From a virus (lineage: Duplodnaviria; Caudoviricetes), in IMG/VR virus record IMGVR_UViG_3300012665_000810, positions 1 through 55,310 of that record: a stretch of 55,310 nucleotides of DNA; one strand, 5' to 3'. Within the stretch, counting starts at the first letter, position 1; each line of letters starts with the position of its first letter. Positions 3,001-35,098 of the stretch are shown here, piece by piece. The notes under the pieces are model-generated. The model worked only from the letters and a program-made list of their open reading frames with translations, searched no databases and was not told where the DNA came from. The position numbers and the translations under genes are program-made.

Positions 3001-6000
3001 GGTAGTCTCGTTTAATATTAAGATAGTTAGGAGTTAACGGTGTTCCATCCCCTCTATATATTTGATAATCATAAAAACTATCGAGTATGTTATCAGGCAC
3101 ACCTATATTAAAAGATATTTCTAACTTTTCACCAGCTGGACTTAGTGTAATTAAAGAACCAATCGCCCAGTTATGACTTGTCCAGTACATAAATTCTTTT
3201 GCACTAGTCAGCCAGTTTTGTGTTACTTTGTTTTCGCTATCGTATCGATTAAAAGTAAATCCTTTTGATAGCAAGTATTTTTCATAGCCAAATATAAAAT
3301 CAATTACTGATTGAATTGTTGGTAAGATTGTTCCGTAGTTTAATTTGGATATTGAATTAGTATTAAACGTTCTTCGACTCAGTGCTTCAACAGCATTCTT
3401 TTTAGGTAAAGATGGTAATTTTTTCCAGACCGCTAAAGAAAAAACATCTGCCGAAGTATGACTAGATAAACTTCTGTAAAATTCATTTTTGTATTGGGCA
3501 ATAATTCCGTTACCATAAAACTGATTTGAAGACCATGTTACGAATTCTTCACTAATGCCGCCTACAGAAATTGTACCGTCAGATTGACTTGTTACTGGTT
3601 CATAATAATAAAAGAATGGCTCAAGACTGTCATACCCTTTAATCTTCCATCCTCTATCTGTTTTCTCGACAATTACGCCACTGTAAACAATTGTTTCGAT
3701 TGGTGCGCTAACATTAAAGAAAATTTCTTGATTTTCGTTTGGAATGAAAATACTGCTTGAAGTTGATTTAGGGTTCTTACTATCTAGAATAAATTTTTGT
3801 TGAGTTTGATCAACAAACCCGCTCATTCTATACGTTAGCGCAACATCGATAGATTCCAAATAGGTTGTTAATTCAGTTGTTGATAAGTTTTGACTTTTTA
3901 AATAATCAACAATATACGATACCAATCCTGAAGTTTCCGATCCGCCTAACGATGATGTTAACAAATCTTCAACTCGAATAAAAAGATCAGTGTTAGCGTT
4001 TACTGTCTGCCCTAATTTATTAGTTTTTACTTTTGATCTATCAAGACTTTGTCCAATAAAATCAAGTGGTCTTAACAAACATAATGCTATAATTTGTGCA
4101 AAAGGAAATTCGCTACTAATATACCAAGTGTGTTCAACTGGGCCTTGATCGCCTAATTTAAAATCTCCTTCATTATTAATTAAAGAAAAATTTTGTGCTA
4201 GGTTTGAATCAAGCGGGCTTAATAATTTTCCGTCACCGTCAACAGGAATGTGAGACATTAAACTAGGGCGTTGATATCTAGAAGAAATACCTGCTCTAGC
4301 ACCTTGTCTAATTATTCCATTTGTTAGATCTTCCCATAAAATTAAATTATTAGAAGTATACGGCGCAGGACCATACTCACTTTCCCACCATGTTGGCTTT
4401 TCACTAAATCCTAACATTTCCCAAGGACATGTGTGCGGACGATCAGTGTCATAAAACCATTTATAAACTCCGCGCCACCAACCAGGTAAGTTTTCCAATC
4501 CGGTCGGATCTGCCATTTTAGAATAGGTATATGTGAATGAATTTTCAGTATCAAAATAATCATTAGCAATGTAATCAATATTTGTATCCGAAATCCATTT
4601 TAAAAATTCTTGATTAATAATGTTTGTAAGTTGTTCTCTTCTGCCAAACACTCCGGTGTTATAATAGCCACCAAGAATACGATCGTTATCGTGCAGTTCT
4701 TCGTTGTATTCAACTTTAATATTATTATAAATTCTTAATTCAAGTTCAAGAATAGCATCATCACGATAGTCTCCAAATGCAGAAATAATACTGCCGTCGT
4801 GGCCTTGAATAACTTCTTTAGGCTCTATGTAGGTATCATCAAGAAACTTCCTAGGTAGATATTTTTTATACAGTCCTAGTTTAGTTGGAGTTTGTGGAAT
4901 ATGATTAAATGCTGTTGATGTGTATTCTCTAATTTCTAAATTATCACCTTCAACAAGGTCAATGGTTAAGTTGACAAAAGAAAATGTTGAATTAAATTCA
5001 TAATCTGTAGTATTGATTAATTGTCTATCATTAAGATATAGATATACAGCTTTGCTACTTAACGTATTAAGATCAAATTGTTGAGACAATGAAAATGTTT
5101 TTATTCCAGGATCTTCAACAGTATAGTATACAGCAGTAAATGCTCCGCTACCGATCATATCAGAATCAGAGAAAGGATTATTAATATTCTTAGCTTTGGT
5201 AATTTCTATGATTGCTTCATCAACAAAATTTGCAATATTACTAGTATAGTTTAAATTTGCAACTGTGTTTAAAAATTTATTTTTAAAATCTGAATAAGAT
5301 TTTTTAGCGTACCGAATAGACTTAATAAGATTGATTTTTTTATCAACCAACAACATTGTTGCAACCGGGCTTAAATTTTCATGTTTTAAAAATCGTTTAG
5401 TGTGCGACTGGTACCCAGAGATGTCTCTTAAGTTACTAGACGATCCTAATACATTTCCTGTAAATCCTTCAAAAAATTCTAATCCAGTAGTTACATGATC
5501 AGCTGCTTGGCCAAATGTAAAAGATTCTAAATTTTGGTTTAGTGGATTTTTTTCTAAGCCGACAGGAATTTCATAGTATCCTGTATCTGGCGGTTGATCG
5601 CAAAATACCTTAATAACAATAACATCGTCAATTGCAAAGGTTGTATTAAATGTAAATGTGTTTGAGATTCGTGTGTATGTTGCTGATAATTTTTCTCCGT
5701 TTAGGTAAAAAAAGATTTTATCATTGGCAGTTAACAAGTCCCAATTAACTGTTGTAAGCTCAAGTGTTGATGTTGCTGAATTAATTTTTTGATAATCAAT
5801 TATCGGCTGCAAATAAGTTTGAGCTGTTTCAAGCCAACCGTTGCCATATTCTTCAGTCACATTGAATTTATAAAAACCGGTCGCTAATTTAATTGTTGGA
5901 CTTGTTTGATCTGATTTATAAGTGAATGTGTCAGTGTCCCAATTATTAGTGAATAAAATATCTCCTACATTGTCGATATTCAAATAACTGATTGCAAATC

Positions 6001-18240: not shown

Positions 18241-19251
18241 ATGTCATTATTCAAAAAAGTAGCTTGTTTTACCGATATACATTTCGGACTCAAATCTGGT
18301 AGTAGAACTCATAATCAAGATTGCGAAGATTTTGTTTCTTGGTTCTGTGAAACTGCCAAAGCACAAGGTTGCGAAACTGCAATCTTCCTAGGTGACTGGC
18401 ATCATAATCGTAGTACTACAGACGTAAGTACTATGAACTATACGGTGTCAAACTTAGAACGTCTAAGCCAATCTTTCGAAAAAGTATATTTCATTCTAGG
18501 CAATCACGATTTATTCTATAAAGACAAGCGAGAAATTAACTCTATTGAGTTTATGCGCCTGTTTCCAAACGTTATTCCTATCAAGGAAACACTAGTAGAG
18601 GGCGATGTTACTATCATGCCTTGGCTAGTAGGCGACGAATGGAAGGATGTTCCTAAGATGAAGAGCCGTTATATCTTTGGACATTTAGAATTACCCTTGT
18701 TCTATATGAATGCTATGGTACAAATGCCAGATCATGGACAATTACAAGCAGGACATTTTGGTAATCAGGAATATGTGTTTAGTGGTCACTTCCATAAACG
18801 TCAAAGCAAGGGTAATGTAACCTATATTGGCAACGCATTCCCACACAACTACGCAGACGCCGGCGACGACGATCGCGGTATGATGATATTAGAGTGGGGT
18901 GGTAAGCCGGAATATCATACATGGCCTGATCAACCCACATTTAGAACATACAAGTTAAGTCAGATTATTGATGCTCCGGATGCATTGTTACGTAAAAAGA
19001 TGCATTGTCGAGTAACTATTGACCTTCCTATTAGTTTCGAAGAAGCAAACTTTATTCGTGAAACATTTATACCACAGTATAATTTACGTGAACTAATGTT
19101 AATTCCTGAAAAAGTAGAAGTTGAATCAAATTCAACGCCCGTCGACATTACATTTGAAAGTGTAGATACAATTGTTATGAACCAAATTAATGCTATCGAT
19201 AGTTCAGCATACGACAAAAATCTATTATTGGATATCTATAAAGATCTATGA
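18241..19251 (+). CDS. gp47: Recombination endonuclease subunit (Mre11/SbcD-like)
   Basis: Metallophosphoesterase motifs DIHFG, GDWHH, GNHD, GHLE, SGHFH. Confidence 0.95.
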   Translation: MSLFKKVACFTDIHFGLKSGSRTHNQDCEDFVSWFCETAKAQGCETAIFLGDWHHNRSTTDVSTMNYTVSNLERLSQSFEKVYFILGNHDLFYKDKREINSIEFMRLFPNVIPIKETLVEGDVTIMPWLVGDEWKDVPKMKSRYIFGHLELPLFYMNAMVQMPDHGQLQAGHFGNQEYVFSGHFHKRQSKGNVTYIGNAFPHNYADAGDDDRGMMILEWGGKPEYHTWPDQPTFRTYKLSQIIDAPDALLRKKMHCRVTIDLPISFEEANFIRETFIPQYNLRELMLIPEKVEVESNSTPVDITFESVDTIVMNQINAIDSSAYDKNLLLDIYKDL

Positions 19252-21026
19252 TTAAAATTAAAAACCTAACTGTTCGTAATTTTATGAGCGTGGGCAATCA
19301 GACCCAAGCCATCGACTTTGACAAAGGACAACTCACTTTAGTCTTAGGTGAAAACCTAGATCTAGGTGGTGATGATAGTGGAGCTCGCAATGGCACTGGT
19401 AAGACTACTATTATTAACGGACTTAGCTATGCTATATATGGTCAAGCTCTAACAAATATCAAACGTGATAACCTTATTAACAAGATCAACAGCAAAGGCA
19501 TGTTGGTAACTGTTACTTTTGAAAAAGATGGCGTTGAATATCACATCGAACGAGGTCGAAAACCTAACGTCTTAAAATTTAGTATTAACGGTCAAGAACA
19601 ACAATTGAGTGATCTAGATGAAAGTCAAGGCGACAGCCGCGAAACTCAAAAGTCTATCGAAGAAATGATTAACATGAGTCACGAGATGTTTAAACATCTT
19701 GTGGCGTTGAACACCTATACTGAACCGTTTCTAGCTATGAAGGCGGGTGATCAACGTAGTATTATTGAGCAGTTGCTAGGTATTACTTTGCTATCAGAAA
19801 AAGCAGAAGCTCTTAAAGAACAAATTCGTTTAAGTAAAGATCATATTCAGACTGAAAACACAAGAATTGAAACTGTTAAGGCTAGCAATGCACGTATTCA
19901 ACAGAGTATTGATGCATTAGAAAGAAAACAAAGTATTTGGGATGATACTAAAGAAAAAAATATTGAGAATCTATTAAAAAGTATCGATGTATTAAGCCAT
20001 ATTGATGCAGAAGCTGAAATTGCAGCACATAAAGAACTTGCTGCATTTAACCAAAAGCGTAAAGACATCGACGATTTAACTAAGGCTATCAGTCGTGCAG
20101 AGTTAGACGAAGCACGAGAGACAAAACAAATTGAAAAACTTAAAAAAGAAATTAAAGATTTAGAAGATCATAAATGTTATGCATGCGGTCAAGACCTTCA
20201 CGACAGTAAACATGAAGAAGTACTAGAATCTAAAAAGAAAGCTCTGCAAGAATCTGCATTGCAAGCATTGAGTACAAACACACAATGGATAGAACTAACT
20301 GACGCTCTTAAAGAATTAGGAGAACTAGGCAATTGTCCTAAAGTGCAGTATGATACATTAGAAGAAGCACTTAATCATAAAAACACAGTTATTAGTTTAG
20401 AAAAAGACCTAGTGTTAAAAGAAGCTGAAACTAATCCGTACTTAGAACAAATTGAAGAGTTGCGTAAAACTGCTGTACAAGAAATTGACTGGGAAGCTGT
20501 TAACGAATTAACAAGGATTAAAGATCACCAAGAGTTCCTATACAAACTATTAACAAATAAAGATAGTTTTGTTCGCAAACGAATCATTGATCAAAATCTA
20601 GCATTCTTAAATCAGCGATTAACCTATTATCTTGATAGAATTGGACTTCCGCACATTGTTGAGTTTCAGAATGATCTAAGTGTTATTATTACACAGTTAG
20701 GTCAAGATCTTGATTTTGATAATCTTTCACGTGGAGAGCGTAATAGATTAATCTTATCTATGAGCTGGGCTTTCCGAGATGTATGGGAGAATCTGTATCA
20801 TCCTATTAATTTACTGTTCATCGACGAATTAGTAGATTCGGGCATGGATGCAAGCGGGGTAGAATCTAGTATTGCTGTGCTTAAGAAAATGACTCGTGAG
20901 CGTAACAAGAATGTATTCTTAATTTCACATAGAGATGATCTAACTAGTCGTGTTAATCATGTTCTTAAAGTTATTAAGGAGAACGGATTCACTAGTTATA
21001 GCAACGATGTGGAGATTGTTGCTTGA
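19248..21026 (+). CDS. gp46: Recombination ATPase subunit (Rad50/SbcC-like)
   Basis: Walker A NGTGKTT, coiled coil with zinc hook CYACG, signature LSRGE, Walker B LLFIDE, H-loop ISHR. Confidence 0.95.
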   Translation: MIKIKNLTVRNFMSVGNQTQAIDFDKGQLTLVLGENLDLGGDDSGARNGTGKTTIINGLSYAIYGQALTNIKRDNLINKINSKGMLVTVTFEKDGVEYHIERGRKPNVLKFSINGQEQQLSDLDESQGDSRETQKSIEEMINMSHEMFKHLVALNTYTEPFLAMKAGDQRSIIEQLLGITLLSEKAEALKEQIRLSKDHIQTENTRIETVKASNARIQQSIDALERKQSIWDDTKEKNIENLLKSIDVLSHIDAEAEIAAHKELAAFNQKRKDIDDLTKAISRAELDEARETKQIEKLKKEIKDLEDHKCYACGQDLHDSKHEEVLESKKKALQESALQALSTNTQWIELTDALKELGELGNCPKVQYDTLEEALNHKNTVISLEKDLVLKEAETNPYLEQIEELRKTAVQEIDWEAVNELTRIKDHQEFLYKLLTNKDSFVRKRIIDQNLAFLNQRLTYYLDRIGLPHIVEFQNDLSVIITQLGQDLDFDNLSRGERNRLILSMSWAFRDVWENLYHPINLLFIDELVDSGMDASGVESSIAVLKKMTRERNKNVFLISHRDDLTSRVNHVLKVIKENGFTSYSNDVEIVA

Positions 21027-21253
21027 CAACCGAAGCTCACGATAAAATGATTGCTGCTTTTCAGGAATATTTTAAGTGGCAAGAACGATTTGAATACAAA
21101 GGCTCAGACGAAGCAGGCATTAAGGCACGATATTGGCTATCAGAAATACGCAATGAAGCAAGTACCCGCAGAATAGAAATACAGGCAAAGCGTGAAGAAC
21201 GCAAAAAATCCAGAAAAGGCATGATAGGCAGACCGCCCAAGGTAACTAAATGA
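21023..21253 (+). CDS. Small basic protein, Hc1 (histone H1-like) family-like, with an AT-hook-like tail
   Basis: F..KG...AG.KAR..LSEI......RR.EIQ pattern; C-terminal KKSRKGMIGRPPK; TTG start overlapping the gp46 stop. Confidence 0.55.
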   Translation: MTTEAHDKMIAAFQEYFKWQERFEYKGSDEAGIKARYWLSEIRNEASTRRIEIQAKREERKKSRKGMIGRPPKVTK

Positions 21254-21688
21254 GTGCAATGGACGTATCAAAATCAACCCGTAAATGAAATACCAGAAGG
21301 CTATATTGGCTTTGTTTACATAATCACGAATACCGTAACCGGACAGAAGTACATAGGCAAGAAATTAGCACAATTCAAACGTACTAAACCCCCACTCAAA
21401 GGCAAAAAACTTAAAAGAAGAAGCACAGTAGAAAGCGATTGGCGCGAATACTGGGGTTCATCTGATAGGTTAAACGCAGACGTCCAAGCATTAGGTCCGG
21501 AAAACTTCACAAGAGAAATACTTTACCTTTGCAAATCCAAGGCAGAACTAAGTTATTTAGAGGCTAGAGAGCAGTTTGAACGCAGAGTTTTAGAAACAGA
21601 TGACTATTATAATGGCATTATAAACGTCAGAGTTGGCGGTTCAAACATACTTAGACAACGTCTTTTAGAACAATCTCAGGCAAAATAA
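21254..21688 (+). CDS. Stand-alone minimal GIY-YIG endonuclease (144 aa, GTG start)
   Basis: GFVYIITN...KYIGKK, YWGSS, a candidate catalytic Glu in SYLEAREQF and YYN; Lys/Arg-rich insert KRTKPPLKGKKLKRRS; no separate DNA-binding domain. Confidence 0.85.
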   Translation: MQWTYQNQPVNEIPEGYIGFVYIITNTVTGQKYIGKKLAQFKRTKPPLKGKKLKRRSTVESDWREYWGSSDRLNADVQALGPENFTREILYLCKSKAELSYLEAREQFERRVLETDDYYNGIINVRVGGSNILRQRLLEQSQAK

Positions 21689-21699
21689 AGCGGTATTTT

Positions 21700-22062
21700 C
21701 AGCTAGCGCAGGCTTAATTTCGTGCGCTCTATACCTGGATCTCGGATCACAGGGACGGAAAACCTTGCCGCAAAGGTGCTTAACCACTACCCGAAAGGAT
21801 GACGATCGCTACTAAGACCTGCGATTTGGTTATTTGAATAGAAAAACAAGGCAAAAAGAAGGGAGAGAAACCCTTAGGTTAATGCGTATGTTAGCGTATA
21901 TGTATTAATCCACCGTCATATTGACTGAGCTCGAGGTACCGGATGACCGCCTCTGTAACTGCTTTAACGCTAAGTGTACTGTGCAACTCGCATAATGCTT
22001 CTTGACCCGTAACAGGGTTAAGTGTGACTGAACAATCTGCATAATACTTAATGCTTCGCATT
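21700..22062 (+). ncRNA. Candidate large structured non-coding RNA, family not recognised
   Basis: 485 nt intergenic gap in a gene-dense genome. About ten nested helices, a GAAA tetraloop, G-U pairs that work only on the + strand, and a 7-bp loop pseudoknot (see findings). Boundaries approximate. Confidence 0.7.
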
Positions 22063-22118
22063 TATAACTTCGATATTGTTCTAAGAAAGAAAAATGCGTT
22101 GAGCGTAAGCGAAAACGC

Positions 22119-22141
22119 AAATGAGCTTTAGCTCATTTTTT
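22119..22141 (+). terminator. Intrinsic terminator-like hairpin
   Basis: AAATGAGC-TTTA-GCTCATTT running into a T tract; closes the gp47-GIY-YIG-RNA unit. Confidence 0.6.
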
Positions 22142-22143
22142 AC

Positions 22144-22151
22144 AATAAATA
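22144..22151 (+). promoter_or_regulatory. Late promoter (AATAAATA)
   Basis: TAAATA core 22 nt upstream of ATG 22174. Confidence 0.55.
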
Positions 22152-22173
22152 AAAAACAATCGGAATTCATCAA

Positions 22174-23295
22174 ATGCGTATAAATGATATTTTAATCGAA
22201 AACAAACAAGTAACTGAAGCTCCTTTAGGTATGCTCAGTAAGTTAGGGCATGGAGTTAAGAGTGCTTTTGGTAGTGGTAAATCAAAAGGCGTTCTAGATA
22301 CAGGCAATGCTTCAAATCAATTAAAACAAGATTATATGAAGATGCTTGGTGCAACTGGACAAGAAGCTGAATCCGATAATCTGATTGCTTTCCTACAAAA
22401 AGCAGGATATCCTGTTGATAGAGTTAAAAAATCATTAGGTGGTGCGCAAGCTAATCCTGTTGAACCTACTATGGATCCTGAACCAGGCACAGCACCAGCT
22501 ACTGGTCGCCCACAAGGAGGTGGTAAAGTAGCTGGACAACAAAGTCAAACTCCTAGTGCTGTTAAAAAACGTGATGCACGTAGCGGCAAACCTACTGCTC
22601 CTCCGTCAAATGCTGGCGCAAACGCATTTGGTCAAATGGCAAAACAGCTTACAACACCTAATGATGCTGCTGCAAAAGTAACAACTAAACCTACTCCTGT
22701 TACAACAACTCCTGGTTCTACTAATCCGGGCGGTGCTGTTGATAATTTCAAACAGCAAATGGCCAATAACACTGAACTTGATCGTCAAAGAAAGCAAAAA
22801 GAAATAGACCAGGGCAACTCCACTTCAACTAAAAGCAAGGCGTTAGGTCCAAAGGGCCGTGAAACACTAGCACGTTTAGGTAAACAAAGCCAAGTTAGAT
22901 CTAGCGGTAAACAAGGTTCATTGGACCTTAACAGTCGCAAGAACGCAGGCAATAGTATCCTTGAAGCACTTAGTGATAAACAAATTGATGCAGCATTCTT
23001 AATGGCTGTTCAAGATAAGGCCAAAGCAGGCGGTAGCAGTCAACCAAGCAGTCAGTCTGCTCCTGCGGATAGCGGAGATAGCAGTGGTGGGTCAAGTGCA
23101 TTAGGCACATTAGCTAGATCAGCAATGGGATTACGTTCAAGATCTTCATCTTCGGGCAGAGATTCTGATAGTAGTAGTCCGCTAGATGGGATTGATTTAG
23201 CTGCACTAAAGATGGGATTGACTAACGTAGTTAATGACAGACCTATAGATAACTCTGCCAAACGAGAAATTCAAAAACTTATCAAGAAACTTTAA
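22174..23295 (+). CDS. Low-complexity late protein, probable internal head protein
   Basis: Own late promoter; N-terminus MRINDILIE...VTE resembles T4 capsid-targeting/gp21-cleaved leaders; Pro/Gly/Ser-rich body. Confidence 0.5.
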   Translation: MRINDILIENKQVTEAPLGMLSKLGHGVKSAFGSGKSKGVLDTGNASNQLKQDYMKMLGATGQEAESDNLIAFLQKAGYPVDRVKKSLGGAQANPVEPTMDPEPGTAPATGRPQGGGKVAGQQSQTPSAVKKRDARSGKPTAPPSNAGANAFGQMAKQLTTPNDAAAKVTTKPTPVTTTPGSTNPGGAVDNFKQQMANNTELDRQRKQKEIDQGNSTSTKSKALGPKGRETLARLGKQSQVRSSGKQGSLDLNSRKNAGNSILEALSDKQIDAAFLMAVQDKAKAGGSSQPSSQSAPADSGDSSGGSSALGTLARSAMGLRSRSSSSGRDSDSSSPLDGIDLAALKMGLTNVVNDRPIDNSAKREIQKLIKKL

Positions 23296-23528
23296 AAGAA
23301 AGGTAGTCCTGATTTCTTAGTTGTTTCTAAATTTTCTTTAATGATTTCCCCGATGATCATGCGTTCATCGTGCGTTAAGTTAAGGACATCTTGGTAACTC
23401 ATGCCGCGCATGTACCAGCACATCTTCAAGAGATCTTTCTTGAGCTCCTGTCCTTCTTTTTCTAATGATTTAACATACTGTAGGATCTCCGGACGGGAGA
23501 GGGTTAAGATCCTACTCCGAAAAAATTT
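23292..23528 (-). CDS. Frameshift-accessed C-terminal extension of the gp26-like chaperone (gp51/gpGT-like)
   Basis: Not in the ORF track. The -1 frame is open from the slippery site: KFFRSRILTLSRPEILQYVKSLEKEGQELKKDLLKMCWYMRGMSYQDVLNLTHDERMIIGEIIKENLETTKKSGLPFF*. Its stop overlaps the convergent stop at 23293-23295. Confidence 0.75.
   Translation of the reverse strand, partial: KFFRSRILTLSRPEILQYVKSLEKEGQELKKDLLKMCWYMRGMSYQDVLNLTHDERMIIGEIIKENLETTKKSGLPFF
23480..23528 (-). promoter_or_regulatory. Programmed -1 ribosomal frameshift signal
   Basis: In-frame slippery heptamers A_AAT_TTT (23528-23522) and T_TTT_TTC (23525-23519), then a perfect 9-bp stem GTAGGATCT/AGATCCTAC starting 6 nt after the first heptamer. 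Confidence 0.75.
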
Positions 23529-24373
23529 GTTTGATCCATTGTCAATTCGACATCAAAAGTAGTTTCACATTCTTGGCAACTAACTGTTTGAGCTTTTAGA
23601 GCAATCTCATCTTTCAATTTAGTAATGTGATCATTAATGCCATTGAACACTTCTGTTGGACTGTTATTAACAAATTCTTGAATTTGCTCTTGATCAGTTA
23701 CAAGATCAGTCGGTGTTTGGATACTGGTAATGCACCCTGTAACAATATCAACAGTAAGCTCAGTTAGTTTGACAAAACTTTCTCCAAACCGTTCAATTTT
23801 TTCTTCATCTGATAACGACTCGTCATTGACAATAGAAATAATTTTTTGTTGTTCAAGACTTCTAATTGCTGTTTTAGTAATTTCTTTATAGTTGTATGGT
23901 CGAATACTGATTACCAACGGACCAACAGGGATTTCTTTTACATAATGGAAATGAGAAGCTTTGTCTAGATAATGAACTAGATTAATTTGATAGTCGTTGG
24001 TGTGGTCACAGCTAGGACATATCGATGATACTTCCATCTCCTCACCATATGTAGCAATTCGTATTGCAATTAGCACAGCATCTAGATCGATACTAGGCAT
24101 TAGCCAAGGATCTTTAATCGAAGGTACACAACTCTTAATGACTTCGACAGTGGCCTGACCGTTCATTAAAGCATCAGGAGATTTAAAAATTAACTCGTCC
24201 TTGGCTGTCATAGCATAAACTGCATATTCGTCAATTTGGCTGTGATCTAGTGTACCATTGGGATAAAACTCACCGTTACTGGGCAATTTCAAATACAACT
24301 TAGGCTGTCTGAAATATCCGGCAAGCGGATTAACAGGCTTAGCCGTTGGCTGCGGAATTGTTTGTTCTGGCAT
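23504..24373 (-). CDS. Baseplate hub assembly chaperone, gp26-like
   Basis: YLKLPS...MTAKDE...DLDAVLIAIRIATYGE...CPSC...CQEC (two CxxC motifs); adjacent to the tape-measure gene. Confidence 0.75.
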   Translation of the reverse strand: MPEQTIPQPTAKPVNPLAGYFRQPKLYLKLPSNGEFYPNGTLDHSQIDEYAVYAMTAKDELIFKSPDALMNGQATVEVIKSCVPSIKDPWLMPSIDLDAVLIAIRIATYGEEMEVSSICPSCDHTNDYQINLVHYLDKASHFHYVKEIPVGPLVISIRPYNYKEITKTAIRSLEQQKIISIVNDESLSDEEKIERFGESFVKLTELTVDIVTGCITSIQTPTDLVTDQEQIQEFVNNSPTEVFNGINDHITKLKDEIALKAQTVSCQECETTFDVELTMDQTNFFGVGS

Positions 24374-29296: not shown

Positions 29297-29545
29297 ATGC
29301 TCCTACGTGAATTTTTTTATTTTAATGACAATACAAATGACTTTTCAGTCGATCAACGATATGAAAACTCTAGAGATAGTTCTGTGGTTAAAAAATCAGA
29401 TACACGCAAACTACGTTTAACTCTTAAACAAATTAACCAGCTGCGAATACAAAGCGAAGCTCATGATTTTGAAGAAGAATCAGAAAGAGCTTTTATACAA
29501 CAAATGTACGGTACCCCAGTTGAAGCAGAACAACCCGCAGAATGA
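29297..29545 (+). CDS. Small head-module protein (82 aa), unknown function
   Basis: Likely start is ATG 29297 (MLLREFFYF) rather than 29240; DTRKLRLTLKQINQLR...MYG. Confidence 0.65.
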   Translation: MLLREFFYFNDNTNDFSVDQRYENSRDSSVVKKSDTRKLRLTLKQINQLRIQSEAHDFEEESERAFIQQMYGTPVEAEQPAE

Positions 29546-34363: not shown

Positions 34364-34456
34364 TAAATACAATGTCTATTAAAGAACTTGCATACGGCAA
34401 GACTTATGGGGTAACCATCCTCGTAGACCTAAAACGTCATATTAAGGAGAAACAAA
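34362..34456 (+). promoter_or_regulatory. Late promoter GATAAATA plus structured 5' leader
   Basis: Promoter 34362-34369; hairpins at 34387-34401 and 34405-34425; SD AAGGAG at 34444. Confidence 0.55.
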
Positions 34457-35098
34457 ATGGGACGTCCATTAAAGAAAGATGTGCGAGGTACAGACGTACT
34501 TGGCCTAAACAATCTTGGTAACACAGGTATCACAGTAAGCGGCTATTTTGATGGTGCGCTTTCTACAGCATATTCTATTATCAAACAACGCGGTGCTAAC
34601 ACATTCGTTGTAGCTAAAAAAGAAACATTCACAGCAACTACATCAAACGGTGCTTATACGCTAACAAGTATGAGTGATCAAATTGAAGTAACAATTGGCG
34701 ACGAAATTTCTGGTGCAGGTATTCCAACAGGTGCTAGAGTTGCTAGCATTGACAGCGCAACACAAGTAACAATGACTTTAGCTGCGACAGCATCTGCTAG
34801 CGTTACAGTTACACACTTTGGTGTATTTAAAACTGGTAAACTAGTTGACACAACTCCAAATGCTGAAGGTGAAATCCTAATGCAAGGCTCAACAGCTGGT
34901 ACAACAGATCAAAGTTTAGTTCCTATTGCTAAACTATCACGAAGAATTGCTTACGGATTCCCAACAGTTCCAGTACTAAGTGGCGGATTTAATCGAGGTG
35001 AAGATAGTAATACTTCTACTAACCACGATGCTACTCGTTATACTTGGTTTTTAGAAAACGATTCAACAGCTGATTATATTGTTTTAACAGCAATCTAA
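34457..35098 (+). CDS. Virion structural protein (possible head decoration)
   Basis: Late promoter, strong SD, Thr/Gly-rich beta composition, MGRPLKK start. Confidence 0.55.
   Translation: MGRPLKKDVRGTDVLGLNNLGNTGITVSGYFDGALSTAYSIIKQRGANTFVVAKKETFTATTSNGAYTLTSMSDQIEVTIGDEISGAGIPTGARVASIDSATQVTMTLAATASASVTVTHFGVFKTGKLVDTTPNAEGEILMQGSTAGTTDQSLVPIAKLSRRIAYGFPTVPVLSGGFNRGEDSNTSTNHDATRYTWFLENDSTADYIVLTAI

Follow-up and report, generated by a model that had tools for sequence, protein, structure and literature searches.

The Polynucleobacter-1 motif is entered in a published motif table as a possibly cis-regulatory RNA of Burkholderiales and of fresh water and estuaries (Weinberg et al. 2010, PMC2864571). 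In the present study a match to this motif was analyzed in a stretch of 55,310 nt from a virus (Duplodnaviria; Caudoviricetes), a fragment of the IMG/VR record IMGVR_UViG_3300012665_000810, hereafter called the window, to whose positions all coordinates refer. The match makes up the 5' domain of a structured phage RNA of about 440 nt on the plus strand, which extends from about 21690 to 22141, i.e., from the stop codon of a gene for a single-domain GIY-YIG nuclease to a terminator. Positions 21971-22049, which a first-pass annotation of the bare letters had described as a guide-like internal loop, are the core of the 3' domain of this RNA and fall outside the model of the motif (Rfam RF01718). 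They hold two 16-nt units on either side of a hairpin, and the few letters that vary within these units are kept alike in both.

The likeness to Polynucleobacter-1 consists in the full-model match of 21701-21835 (106 bits), and the freshwater habitat fits. However, the model has 141 positions and includes neither the pseudoknot and the twin units nor the 3' hairpins, the terminator or a link to a GIY-YIG gene; furthermore, the table lists the motif as possibly cis-regulatory, whereas a terminator and a promoter-like site separate the present RNA from the next gene. The 5' domain is a known orphan motif, and its joining to a pseudoknotted RNA of about 440 nt with a gene partner appears to be new. 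An orphan Rfam motif of 141 nt thereby becomes part of a larger RNA beside a conserved nuclease without a DNA-binding domain, and a widespread lineage of giant freshwater phages has RNA and gene in a single copy per genome (the gene is present on at least 597 contigs). Literature searches, judged by titles and the beginnings of abstracts, revealed neither a GIY-YIG-linked phage RNA nor this module; the supplements of PMC2864571 may cover the gene context of the motif.

By analogy, the closest functional counterpart appears to be the Ssn family, single-domain GIY-YIG nucleases of single-stranded DNA (ssDNA) whose genes are flanked by cognate hairpin repeats, each homologue having its own variant; the same account reports hundreds of NTS copies in pathogenic Neisseria and genomes with more than 200 SRM repeats (PMC11893778). 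In both cases the GIY-YIG protein is small and lacks a DNA-binding domain, and a repeated motif occurs at hairpins beside its gene. In contrast, Ssn belongs to cd10448 and the nuclease studied here to PF19835/phrog_447, and the two copies of the motif lie within a large structured RNA downstream of the gene in 146 of 146 loci, with no further copies in a complete 355-kb genome. The omega RNAs of TnpB and IscB, RNA-guided nucleases of mobile elements (PMC10690162, PMC13565253), resemble the locus in that a compact nuclease gene stands beside a large structured RNA and, in some relatives, conservation is higher within the cassette than around it. They differ in the nuclease fold, which is GIY-YIG here and not RuvC/HNH, and in the hypervariable guide of fixed length at the RNA end, which is missing here, the hypervariable stretch measuring about 5-60 nt; moreover, no transposon ends were seen in the present case, and guiding is a proposal.

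In the translational bypass of T4 gene 60, matched take-off and landing codons lie 50 nt apart and a homing endonuclease travels along (bioRxiv 10.1101/2022.08.31.505936, 10.1101/2024.12.09.627546). The present locus, also of a T4-like phage, likewise has short matched sequences separated by about 50 nt, the first of them followed by a hairpin, and an adjoining endonuclease gene, but no reading frame passes, UAA follows both copies and the RNA is structured and non-coding. With freestanding endonucleases of the seg type (T4 SegE; I-TevI catalytic domain) the nuclease shares the catalytic domain (PF19835, SegE_GIY-YIG) and a fold match to I-TevI; it differs in the absence of a C-terminal DNA-binding domain, in a gene kept at one fixed locus in all sampled relatives, in the predicted dimer, and in a conservation of 85-95%, unlike a sporadic selfish gene. 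Box C/D RNAs carry box C (RUGAUGA) and box D (CUGA) in k-turns, with guides upstream of D and D'; in TIGR-Tas systems a Nop-domain Tas protein is encoded beside a tandem array with independent spacers A and B; and the bridge RNA beside an IS110-type recombinase gene reads target and donor DNA with two loops. Two short specificity segments in a pseudo-dimeric RNA around a hairpin are common to these systems and to the locus. The first-pass annotation had proposed a layout of this kind with two partly different guide segments, which is not supported, since the variable letters of the two segments are kept the same here. No RUGAUGA occurs in 21960-22065, the one CUGA, at 22028-31, has been retained by only about 86-95 of 118 homologues, and no Nop-domain or IS110-type gene was found among the eight neighbouring open reading frames (ORFs) tested.

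Homologues of the module were collected from related T4-like freshwater phages by nhmmer with a profile of the core, which recovered it in 154 of 230 fetched loci (119 distinct sequences), so that the repeat recurs far beyond chance. In the window the imperfect direct repeat was present as first noticed (21971-22000 and 22019-22049, 24 of 31 aligned positions in agreement), and column counts redefine it as two 16-nt units of the form NN-AYYY-NN-AUAAU-R-NN, in which the first variable pair is termed N1a and N1b and the second N2a and N2b. ACUC was invariant in unit 1 (119/119) and AUCU in unit 2 (117/117), and AUAAU was kept in 118-119 of 119 sequences in unit 1 and in 116-119 overall, one sequence having AUGAU in both units. 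The variable letters changed in concert: N2a was alike in both units in 117 of 117 sequences (shuffled mean 60, maximum 77) and N2b in 116 of 116 (mean 75, maximum 87), so that the 7-nt core NNAUAAU is strictly identical between the units in all sequences, while N1b was alike in 108/117 (shuffled mean 61), N1a in 102/112 (86), flank position +1 in 89/116 (57) and +2 in 97/116 (86). The N2 dinucleotide occurred as GC, AG, GG, GA and AC; altogether 28 unit haplotypes were counted in 111 sequences, 70 of them fully concordant, with 65 discordant cells in all. The mutual information of N2a and N2b with the twin column equalled their full entropy (0.97 and 0.79 bits), against 0.39 and 0.65 bits for the best other column in the range -1100 to +130, which includes both upstream ORFs; besides the twin column no column in this range covaried with the variable letters. 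On a flank-based tree, for which the module was masked, N2a changed about 15 times and N2b about four times, always jointly and with N2a never discordant; these tree-based counts may be inflated by recombination, which weighs against the reading favoured below, but from the state counts alone about ten concerted double changes are the minimum.

Transitions account for all four positions at which the units consistently differ (C/U, U/C, C/U, G/A), so that both units could pair with one strand by way of G-U pairs. No converted Y position was found in 117 sequences, and the neighbouring flanks, GUGUAC and GUGUGAC, were not homogenised. The spacing of the units took every value from 47 to 58 nt, and they are therefore neither coding sequence nor phased DNA sites. 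The twin units also proved to be the most persistent part of the RNA, as judged from three divergent variants: L075 (about 3950-4260) and L086 (about 3900-4190) keep the units, the tail and an inter-unit hairpin, here of the GGGACC/GGUUCC type, with a different 5' scaffold and no pseudoknot strand, and L081 has no Polynucleobacter-1 domain. Letters that vary freely and yet stay equal need a shared, likewise varying reader or a process of copying or joining; a protein that ignores the letters, or one that reads them, cannot explain them. Such perfect 'identity covariation' is rare and is not sought by the usual covariation tools, which are based on pairing; it points to a reader common to both copies.

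The features of the RNA are the following:

21701-21835, plus strand: 5' domain, Rfam Polynucleobacter-1 (RF01718, 106.1 bits against a gathering threshold of 37, full model 1-141)
21859-21875, plus strand: small hairpin AAGGG-AGAGAAA-CCCUU, present in the minimum free energy (MFE) fold of the whole gap
21879-21908, plus strand: hairpin S1, whose loop UUAGCGU (21891-21897) makes the pseudoknot (covariation)
21967-21973, plus strand: 3' strand of the pseudoknot, ACGCUAA, partner of 21891-21897 (covariation)
21984-21999, plus strand: unit 1, CA-ACUC-GC-AUAAU-G-CU, in general NN-ACUC-NN-AUAAU-G-NN (conservation)
22001-22022, plus strand: middle hairpin CTTGACCC-GTAACA-GGGTTAAG between the units, 8 bp (covariation)
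22033-22048, plus strand: unit 2, CA-AUCU-GC-AUAAU-A-CU, in general NN-AUCU-NN-AUAAU-A-NN (conservation)
22050-22062, plus strand: UUC-loop hairpin after unit 2 (covariation)
22063-22094, plus strand: A/U- and purine-rich spacer, highly variable in sequence and length (tails of 116 homologues)
22095-22119, plus strand: hairpin UGCGUU-GA-GC-GUAA-GC-GAA-AACGCA with GNRA loop and tandem G/A (homologue tails)
22121-22141, plus strand: terminator-like hairpin and U run (read from the sequence; in the MFE fold)

Structure was counted on an alignment of 109 sequences, in which 'cells' denotes the pairings counted. Ten of the 11 pairs of S1 had changed on both sides (94.8% of cells paired), as had all seven pairs of the pseudoknot (97.5%), the complement of which was present in 104 of 109 sequences. 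The middle hairpin had been recognized correctly in the first-pass annotation as joining the two copies: each of its eight pairs forms in 114-118 of about 118 sequences, and it covaries at 22004:22019 (UA 59, AU 39, UG 7, GU 4, CG 4, GC 2) and 22005:22018 (GC 106, AU 10). In the UUC hairpin the inner pairs were GC 83/UA 8/AU 4 and CG 94/UG 4/UA 3, the next pair UA 52/CG 17, and pair types numbered 4, 3 and 1. A model of S1, pseudoknot, middle hairpin and UUC hairpin pairs 90.9% of cells in the 109 sequences, compared with 74.4% in shuffles, none of 500 reaching the observed value, and 28-47% with a slid partner. The order is thus pseudoknot, unit 1, hairpin, unit 2, UUC hairpin, with both 16-nt units placed as single strands between helices supported by covariation. 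The RF01718 domain and the covarying helices bear out the earlier view that the feature belongs to a real structured RNA beside a GIY-YIG gene, and two equivalent copies of one motif do flank a hairpin, with constant letters framing a few variable, specificity-like ones.

Outside this core, stem variants of the hairpin at 21859-21875 (GGGG/CCCC, GGAG/CUCU, GUAG/CUAC) were seen by eye in homologue examples, uncounted. Likewise by eye, the A/U-rich spacer ranges from about 5 to about 60 nt among homologues, and the hairpin at 22095-22119 has a conserved core (UGCGUU-GA-GC-GNRA-GC-GAA-AACGCA) and an outer stem that covaries, uncounted; it is possibly a protein-binding or tertiary-contact motif. 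The stem at 22121-22141, which a simple terminator scan did not list, covaries in homologue tails by eye and is likely the 3' end of the RNA. In a middle domain, 21923-21958, further covarying pairings were noticed by eye (GAGG/CCUC to GUGG/CCAC, GUCA/UGAC to GUUG/CAAC), and ACCGCC makes up another short direct repeat there. The fold probably contains several pseudoknots. The whole gap of 485 nt between the GIY-YIG stop and the next ORF (21689-22173) folds better than 100 of 100 shuffles (z -3.94). A tRNA search of this gap found none, Rfam at a relaxed E-value gave nothing above chance in 21836-22180, and RNAalifold was uninformative on the gappy MAFFT alignment. One clade (L055, L074, L077, L082, L088, L089, L091, L097, L108, L201, L203) has, by eye, an extra hairpin in the spacer after the UUC hairpin, whose loop CAUCU or AUCU is a third display of AUCU; the letters that follow it do not track N2.

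We tentatively regard the twin units as equivalent recognition sites that match one common nucleic-acid partner and are perhaps the specificity module of a GIY-YIG/RNA particle, a reading which we credit with somewhat less than an even chance. Both units would have to match one sequence-specific partner, most simply by base-pairing in trans to a nucleic acid and so acting as tandem seed, guide or decoy. Since the hairpin would fold the strand back, the two direct copies would come to lie antiparallel in space, and each could serve one subunit of the predicted nuclease homodimer. This reading was judged most likely on account of the contiguous 16-nt region, the identical 7-nt core, the wobble-compatible differences and the lack of a partner in cis or in the phage's own genome. 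The nuclease may bind the RNA. Given a nucleic acid as the reader and recruitment of the nuclease, the locus would represent a new kind of RNA-programmed nuclease; failing that, the module remains a clean natural example of how two RNA sites can be forced to stay alike. More specifically, the RNA might programme the predicted homodimeric, single-domain GIY-YIG nuclease, with the units as twin seeds, one per subunit, an extension that we consider improbable. In that case the same letters would answer to a foreign DNA target that is two-fold symmetric or repeated, candidates being host repeat elements, cut to start the breakdown of host DNA with the upstream gp46/gp47-like exonuclease, and the letters would change as hosts or competitors change. 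If true, it would be the first RNA-guided GIY-YIG system.

Several further points weigh against a common partner. A partner in trans would have to change in step with both units, and none was found in the window or in the complete 355-kb relative: the unit complement was absent from the 55-kb window and, with up to one mismatch, from the relative, and no guide target was found in either. The three Y positions are invariant and differ between the units, although mere pairing should let them drift, and the variable positions, only about six in number, would hold little information for a guide. The units are predicted to be only moderately accessible (P(unpaired) 0.46-0.50 against 0.25-0.36 in helices), unit 1 can partly fold on itself (63-116 of about 118 sequences allow the pairs of UGUKC/RSAUA), the homologues all belong to a single syntenic phage lineage, and the dimer is known only as a model, the monomer model being poor at interface residues 110-137. 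Within the homologous loci no consistent 13-mer complement of the units was found, and searches for 8-mer complements with G-U allowed and for 7- to 9-mer complements gave nothing or no more than chance; the wobble match that 33-34 of 116 sequences show at about -130 is a site that is conserved and does not covary. Neither the window nor the complete relative contains further copies of the units, and the pattern of a palindromic target was no more frequent in five unrelated bacterial genomes than the control. A near-copy of the unit with one mismatch, CAACCCGCAGAAT at 29531-29543 on the plus strand, lies inside a coding region, its count being at chance level, and has no equivalent in the complete relative.

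According to the first-pass annotation, AAGUGU (21972-77) closes with AUACUU (22044-49) one long hairpin with a symmetric internal loop, in which each strand offers a different 8-nt guide to a GIY-YIG dimer; this is now highly improbable. The helix can form in the window and is used by the MFE fold of 21960-22060, 109-115 of 115 sequences are compatible with its inner three pairs (GUG/URY), and the nuclease is predicted to dimerise. However, that fold barely beats shuffles (z -1.83; nine of 200 shuffles fold as well; the minus strand is no better), and across homologues the helix is not conserved: 66.8% of cells are paired, 11 of 109 sequences can make the last pair, and nearly all changes affect one side alone, with double-sided change in one of six pairs (three cells). 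Because this closing helix is poorly paired and two of its bases, 21972-73, belong to the pseudoknot helix proven by covariation, the long hairpin is not the conserved fold. Nor are the supposed boxes the conserved parts, since in copy 1 ACUG varies, as does the GC of GCAUA, whereas ACUC and AUCU, which are the 3' halves of the presumed 8-mers, are invariant; and instead of two different guides only about six positions per unit vary, identically in both. Of the suggested platform for a protein dimer the predicted homodimer of the nuclease stands, but the segments are not independent guides. A complement between GAACAAU and AUUGUUC, noted earlier as perhaps fortuitous, is indeed chance, as it was found in only two of 113 homologues. 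Concerted evolution by very short patches of gene conversion or repair would make the letters neutral and the units two protein-binding or processing sites whose four fixed differences are held by selection. T4-like phages recombine intensely, and identity decays at the unit edges (N1a 102/112, flank +1 89/116, with the 65 discordant cells), as this explanation would have it. We nevertheless consider it unlikely: the variable letters are interleaved with three consecutive fixed mismatches, so that a 16-bp heteroduplex would be poor and conversion tracts would always have to skip YYY, and neither the Y positions (none converted in 117 sequences) nor the flanks GUGUAC/GUGUGAC have been homogenised. 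A joining reaction between donor and acceptor, be it template switching by a polymerase, recombination or cutting and religation by the GIY-YIG enzyme, GIY-YIG enzymes leaving 2-nt 3' overhangs, would drop 47-58 nt and require a strictly identical 7-nt block, which NNAUAAU provides in all sequences; the matched codons of T4 gene 60, 50 nt apart beside a homing endonuclease, may serve as an analogy. It is rather improbable, given that no homologue with one or three units was found among the 154 and that few parts are as well conserved as the intervening hairpin and GUGUGAC. No joint of unit 1 to unit 2 was found in contigs of four RNA runs, though contigs drop rare forms and are no evidence of absence, and ribosomal bypass is excluded, as no ORF enters unit 1 and UAA follows both copies.

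That copy 1 may pair with itself as UGUGC/GCAUA had been foreseen, and a two-state switch could be built on it, UGUKC (21980-84) pairing either locally, in a hairpin with RSAUA of unit 1, or in a long-range helix with the corresponding letters of unit 2, so that the units would have to stay alike. Between 98 and 116 of about 119 sequences make the outer three pairs, and 21983:21991 shows four pair types (UG 47, GC 24, CG 7, UA 3); the pairs of the variable letters, however, match in only 81/119 and 63/114 sequences compared with an identity of 100% between the units, and the concerted N1 and flank positions are left unexplained, which renders a switch very unlikely. Quite unlikely is also the possibility that, as in Ssn, the units are the nuclease's own cognate single-strand sites (RNA or ssDNA), for autoregulation, processing or sequestration, with a specificity that co-evolves in the protein. 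Each unit is followed by a hairpin, both are encoded next to the nuclease gene, whose product is predicted to dimerise, and Ssn enzymes are described as cutting ssDNA at gene-flanking hairpin repeats, each homologue its own variant (PMC11893778). Here, in contrast, no codon of the GIY-YIG gene or the ORF of 76 amino acids (aa) ahead of it tracks the letters (best 0.39-0.41 bits against 0.8-1.0 for the twin column), no residue of the nuclease was found to co-vary with the unit letters, the protein is 85-95% identical across haplotypes, and two copies per 355-kb genome compare with hundreds of NTS copies reported in pathogenic Neisseria (PMC11893778). Least probable, and hardly to be expected, is a DNA-level element of two promoters, operators or iterons. 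Its NATAAT resembles the -10 hexamer consensus, yet there is no -35 at a proper distance, a promoter scan listed none at the units, the spacing varies over more than one helical turn and the surrounding helices covary as plus-strand RNA.

Two further candidates were rejected. The units are not coding sequence, as their spacing is 47-58 nt and open frames lie in different frames across homologues; translational bypass fails on an in-frame stop at 21957-59, on the lack of an ORF entering unit 1, and on UAA following both NNA triplets.

The nuclease and the genes around the RNA are arranged as follows:

18241-19251: metallophosphatase ORF (Pfam)
19248-21026: SMC_N/AAA_23 ORF (Pfam)
21023-21253, plus strand: ORF of 76 aa abutting the GIY-YIG start codon (ORF list and translation)
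21254-21688, plus strand: single-domain GIY-YIG nuclease gene, 144 aa (Pfam, PHROG)
22144-22151, plus strand: AATAAATA ahead of the downstream ORF (read from the sequence)
22174-23295, plus strand: downstream ORF
23504-24373, minus strand: T4 baseplate protein ORF (Pfam)

The nuclease matches Pfam PF19835 SegE_GIY-YIG (E 2.2e-36) over residues 3-123 of 144, without a second domain, and phrog_447 (E 5e-40), a family that bears the name 'NAD synthetase' despite the GIY-YIG nuclease domain in this protein. The GIY...YIG, R, E and N motifs were recognized by eye in the protein sequence at what we take to be their positions. Relatives numbered 6,473 at E <= 1e-5, and identity was 85-95% among the 120 matches listed. 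A sequence search of solved structures with the nuclease found no relative; the monomer model (mean pLDDT 66, poor at residues 110-137) gave nothing at E <= 0.001 in Foldseek, the best fold match being a weak resemblance to the I-TevI catalytic domain (E 0.12, prob 0.92). The homodimer model reached an ipSAE of 0.78, with 0.00 for the best of three controls, over a contact surface of residues 101-137; runs agreed in 100% of contacts, and partner pLDDT was at least 91. In calibration the ipSAE mark was reached by 20 of 30 proteins solved as one-chain pairs and by one of 23 solved single chains, counts that hold only roughly because an own alignment was used. A homodimer is thus predicted, which the model supports but does not show. 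Methylophilales phage Melnitz holds the closest cultured relative of the nuclease (66% identity), at another genome position and with a downstream gap of 148 nt; nuclease relatives occupy other positions in other phages, e.g., after nrdB in Melnitz, and those of the cultured phages Melnitz and S-SRM01 have short downstream gaps and no RNA module.

The ORFs at 18241-19251 and 19248-21026 presumably represent the gp47/gp46 (SbcD/SbcC) pair of T4-like phages, and the RNA lies at the end of this gp47/gp46-like operon, straight after the single-domain nuclease gene. The ORF of 76 aa has a basic, AT-hook-like C-terminus with GRP and no family match in Pfam or PHROG. It may be part of the cassette, as it sits in a block that near relatives share at 90-92% identity, compared with 75% for their gp46-like flank, and from its sequence it could be a nucleic-acid-binding partner of the nuclease. 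Downstream, AATAAATA marks the next transcription unit; it resembles what we assume to be the T4 late promoter consensus, and ATAAATA precedes the start codon in most homologue tails. The late gene at 22174-23295 and its relatives diverge sharply and exactly at the cassette border, and similarity in this gene family is limited to the first residues, M-K/R-I/V-x-D/E-I-I/L.

Relatives of the nuclease gene occur on the at least 597 viral contigs mentioned above, of which 80 were kept (81-99% identical). The whole gap co-travels with the gene at 67-91% identity, and in the most distant loci only 21965-22062 is still alignable. All 146 modules with enough upstream sequence follow a GIY-YIG gene, a further eight being too short to judge; all GIY-YIG loci without the module are cut within 260 nt of the stop codon, and the upstream gp46-like gene is common to all loci. 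In L036, L037, L038 and L043 the cassette (21037-22181) shows the 90-92% identity noted for near relatives, beside the flank of 75%. Five large records, one a complete genome of 354,680 bp, contain one module copy each. No relative of the whole gap was found by blastn in cultured phages, and the middle hairpin had no exact match in viral contigs. A loose pattern drew chance matches in viral contigs, which were sifted out by nhmmer, and in genome contigs gave no true module among the 120 matches listed (nhmmer E 4.7e-4, 0.9). Weak relatives of the downstream protein (L007-L032) revealed no empty-site allele. The gene, and the RNA as far as the units, are covered by contigs from four metatranscriptome runs (four studies), for which DNA carry-over is possible; in three of the four runs the contigs give no cover beyond about 22128, which, for contigs, is no evidence for a transcript end.

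At the left border of the cassette (21021-21037), between it and the gp46-like gene, L036, L038, L043, L047, L075, L077-L080 and L097-L101 carry about 560-630 extra bases, which suggests a hot spot of recombination or insertion. Elsewhere in the window a second Rfam RNA, freshwater-2 (RF02980, 56.4 bits, gathering threshold 49.9), was found at 34386-34459 on the plus strand, ending at the start of the ORF at 34457-35098.

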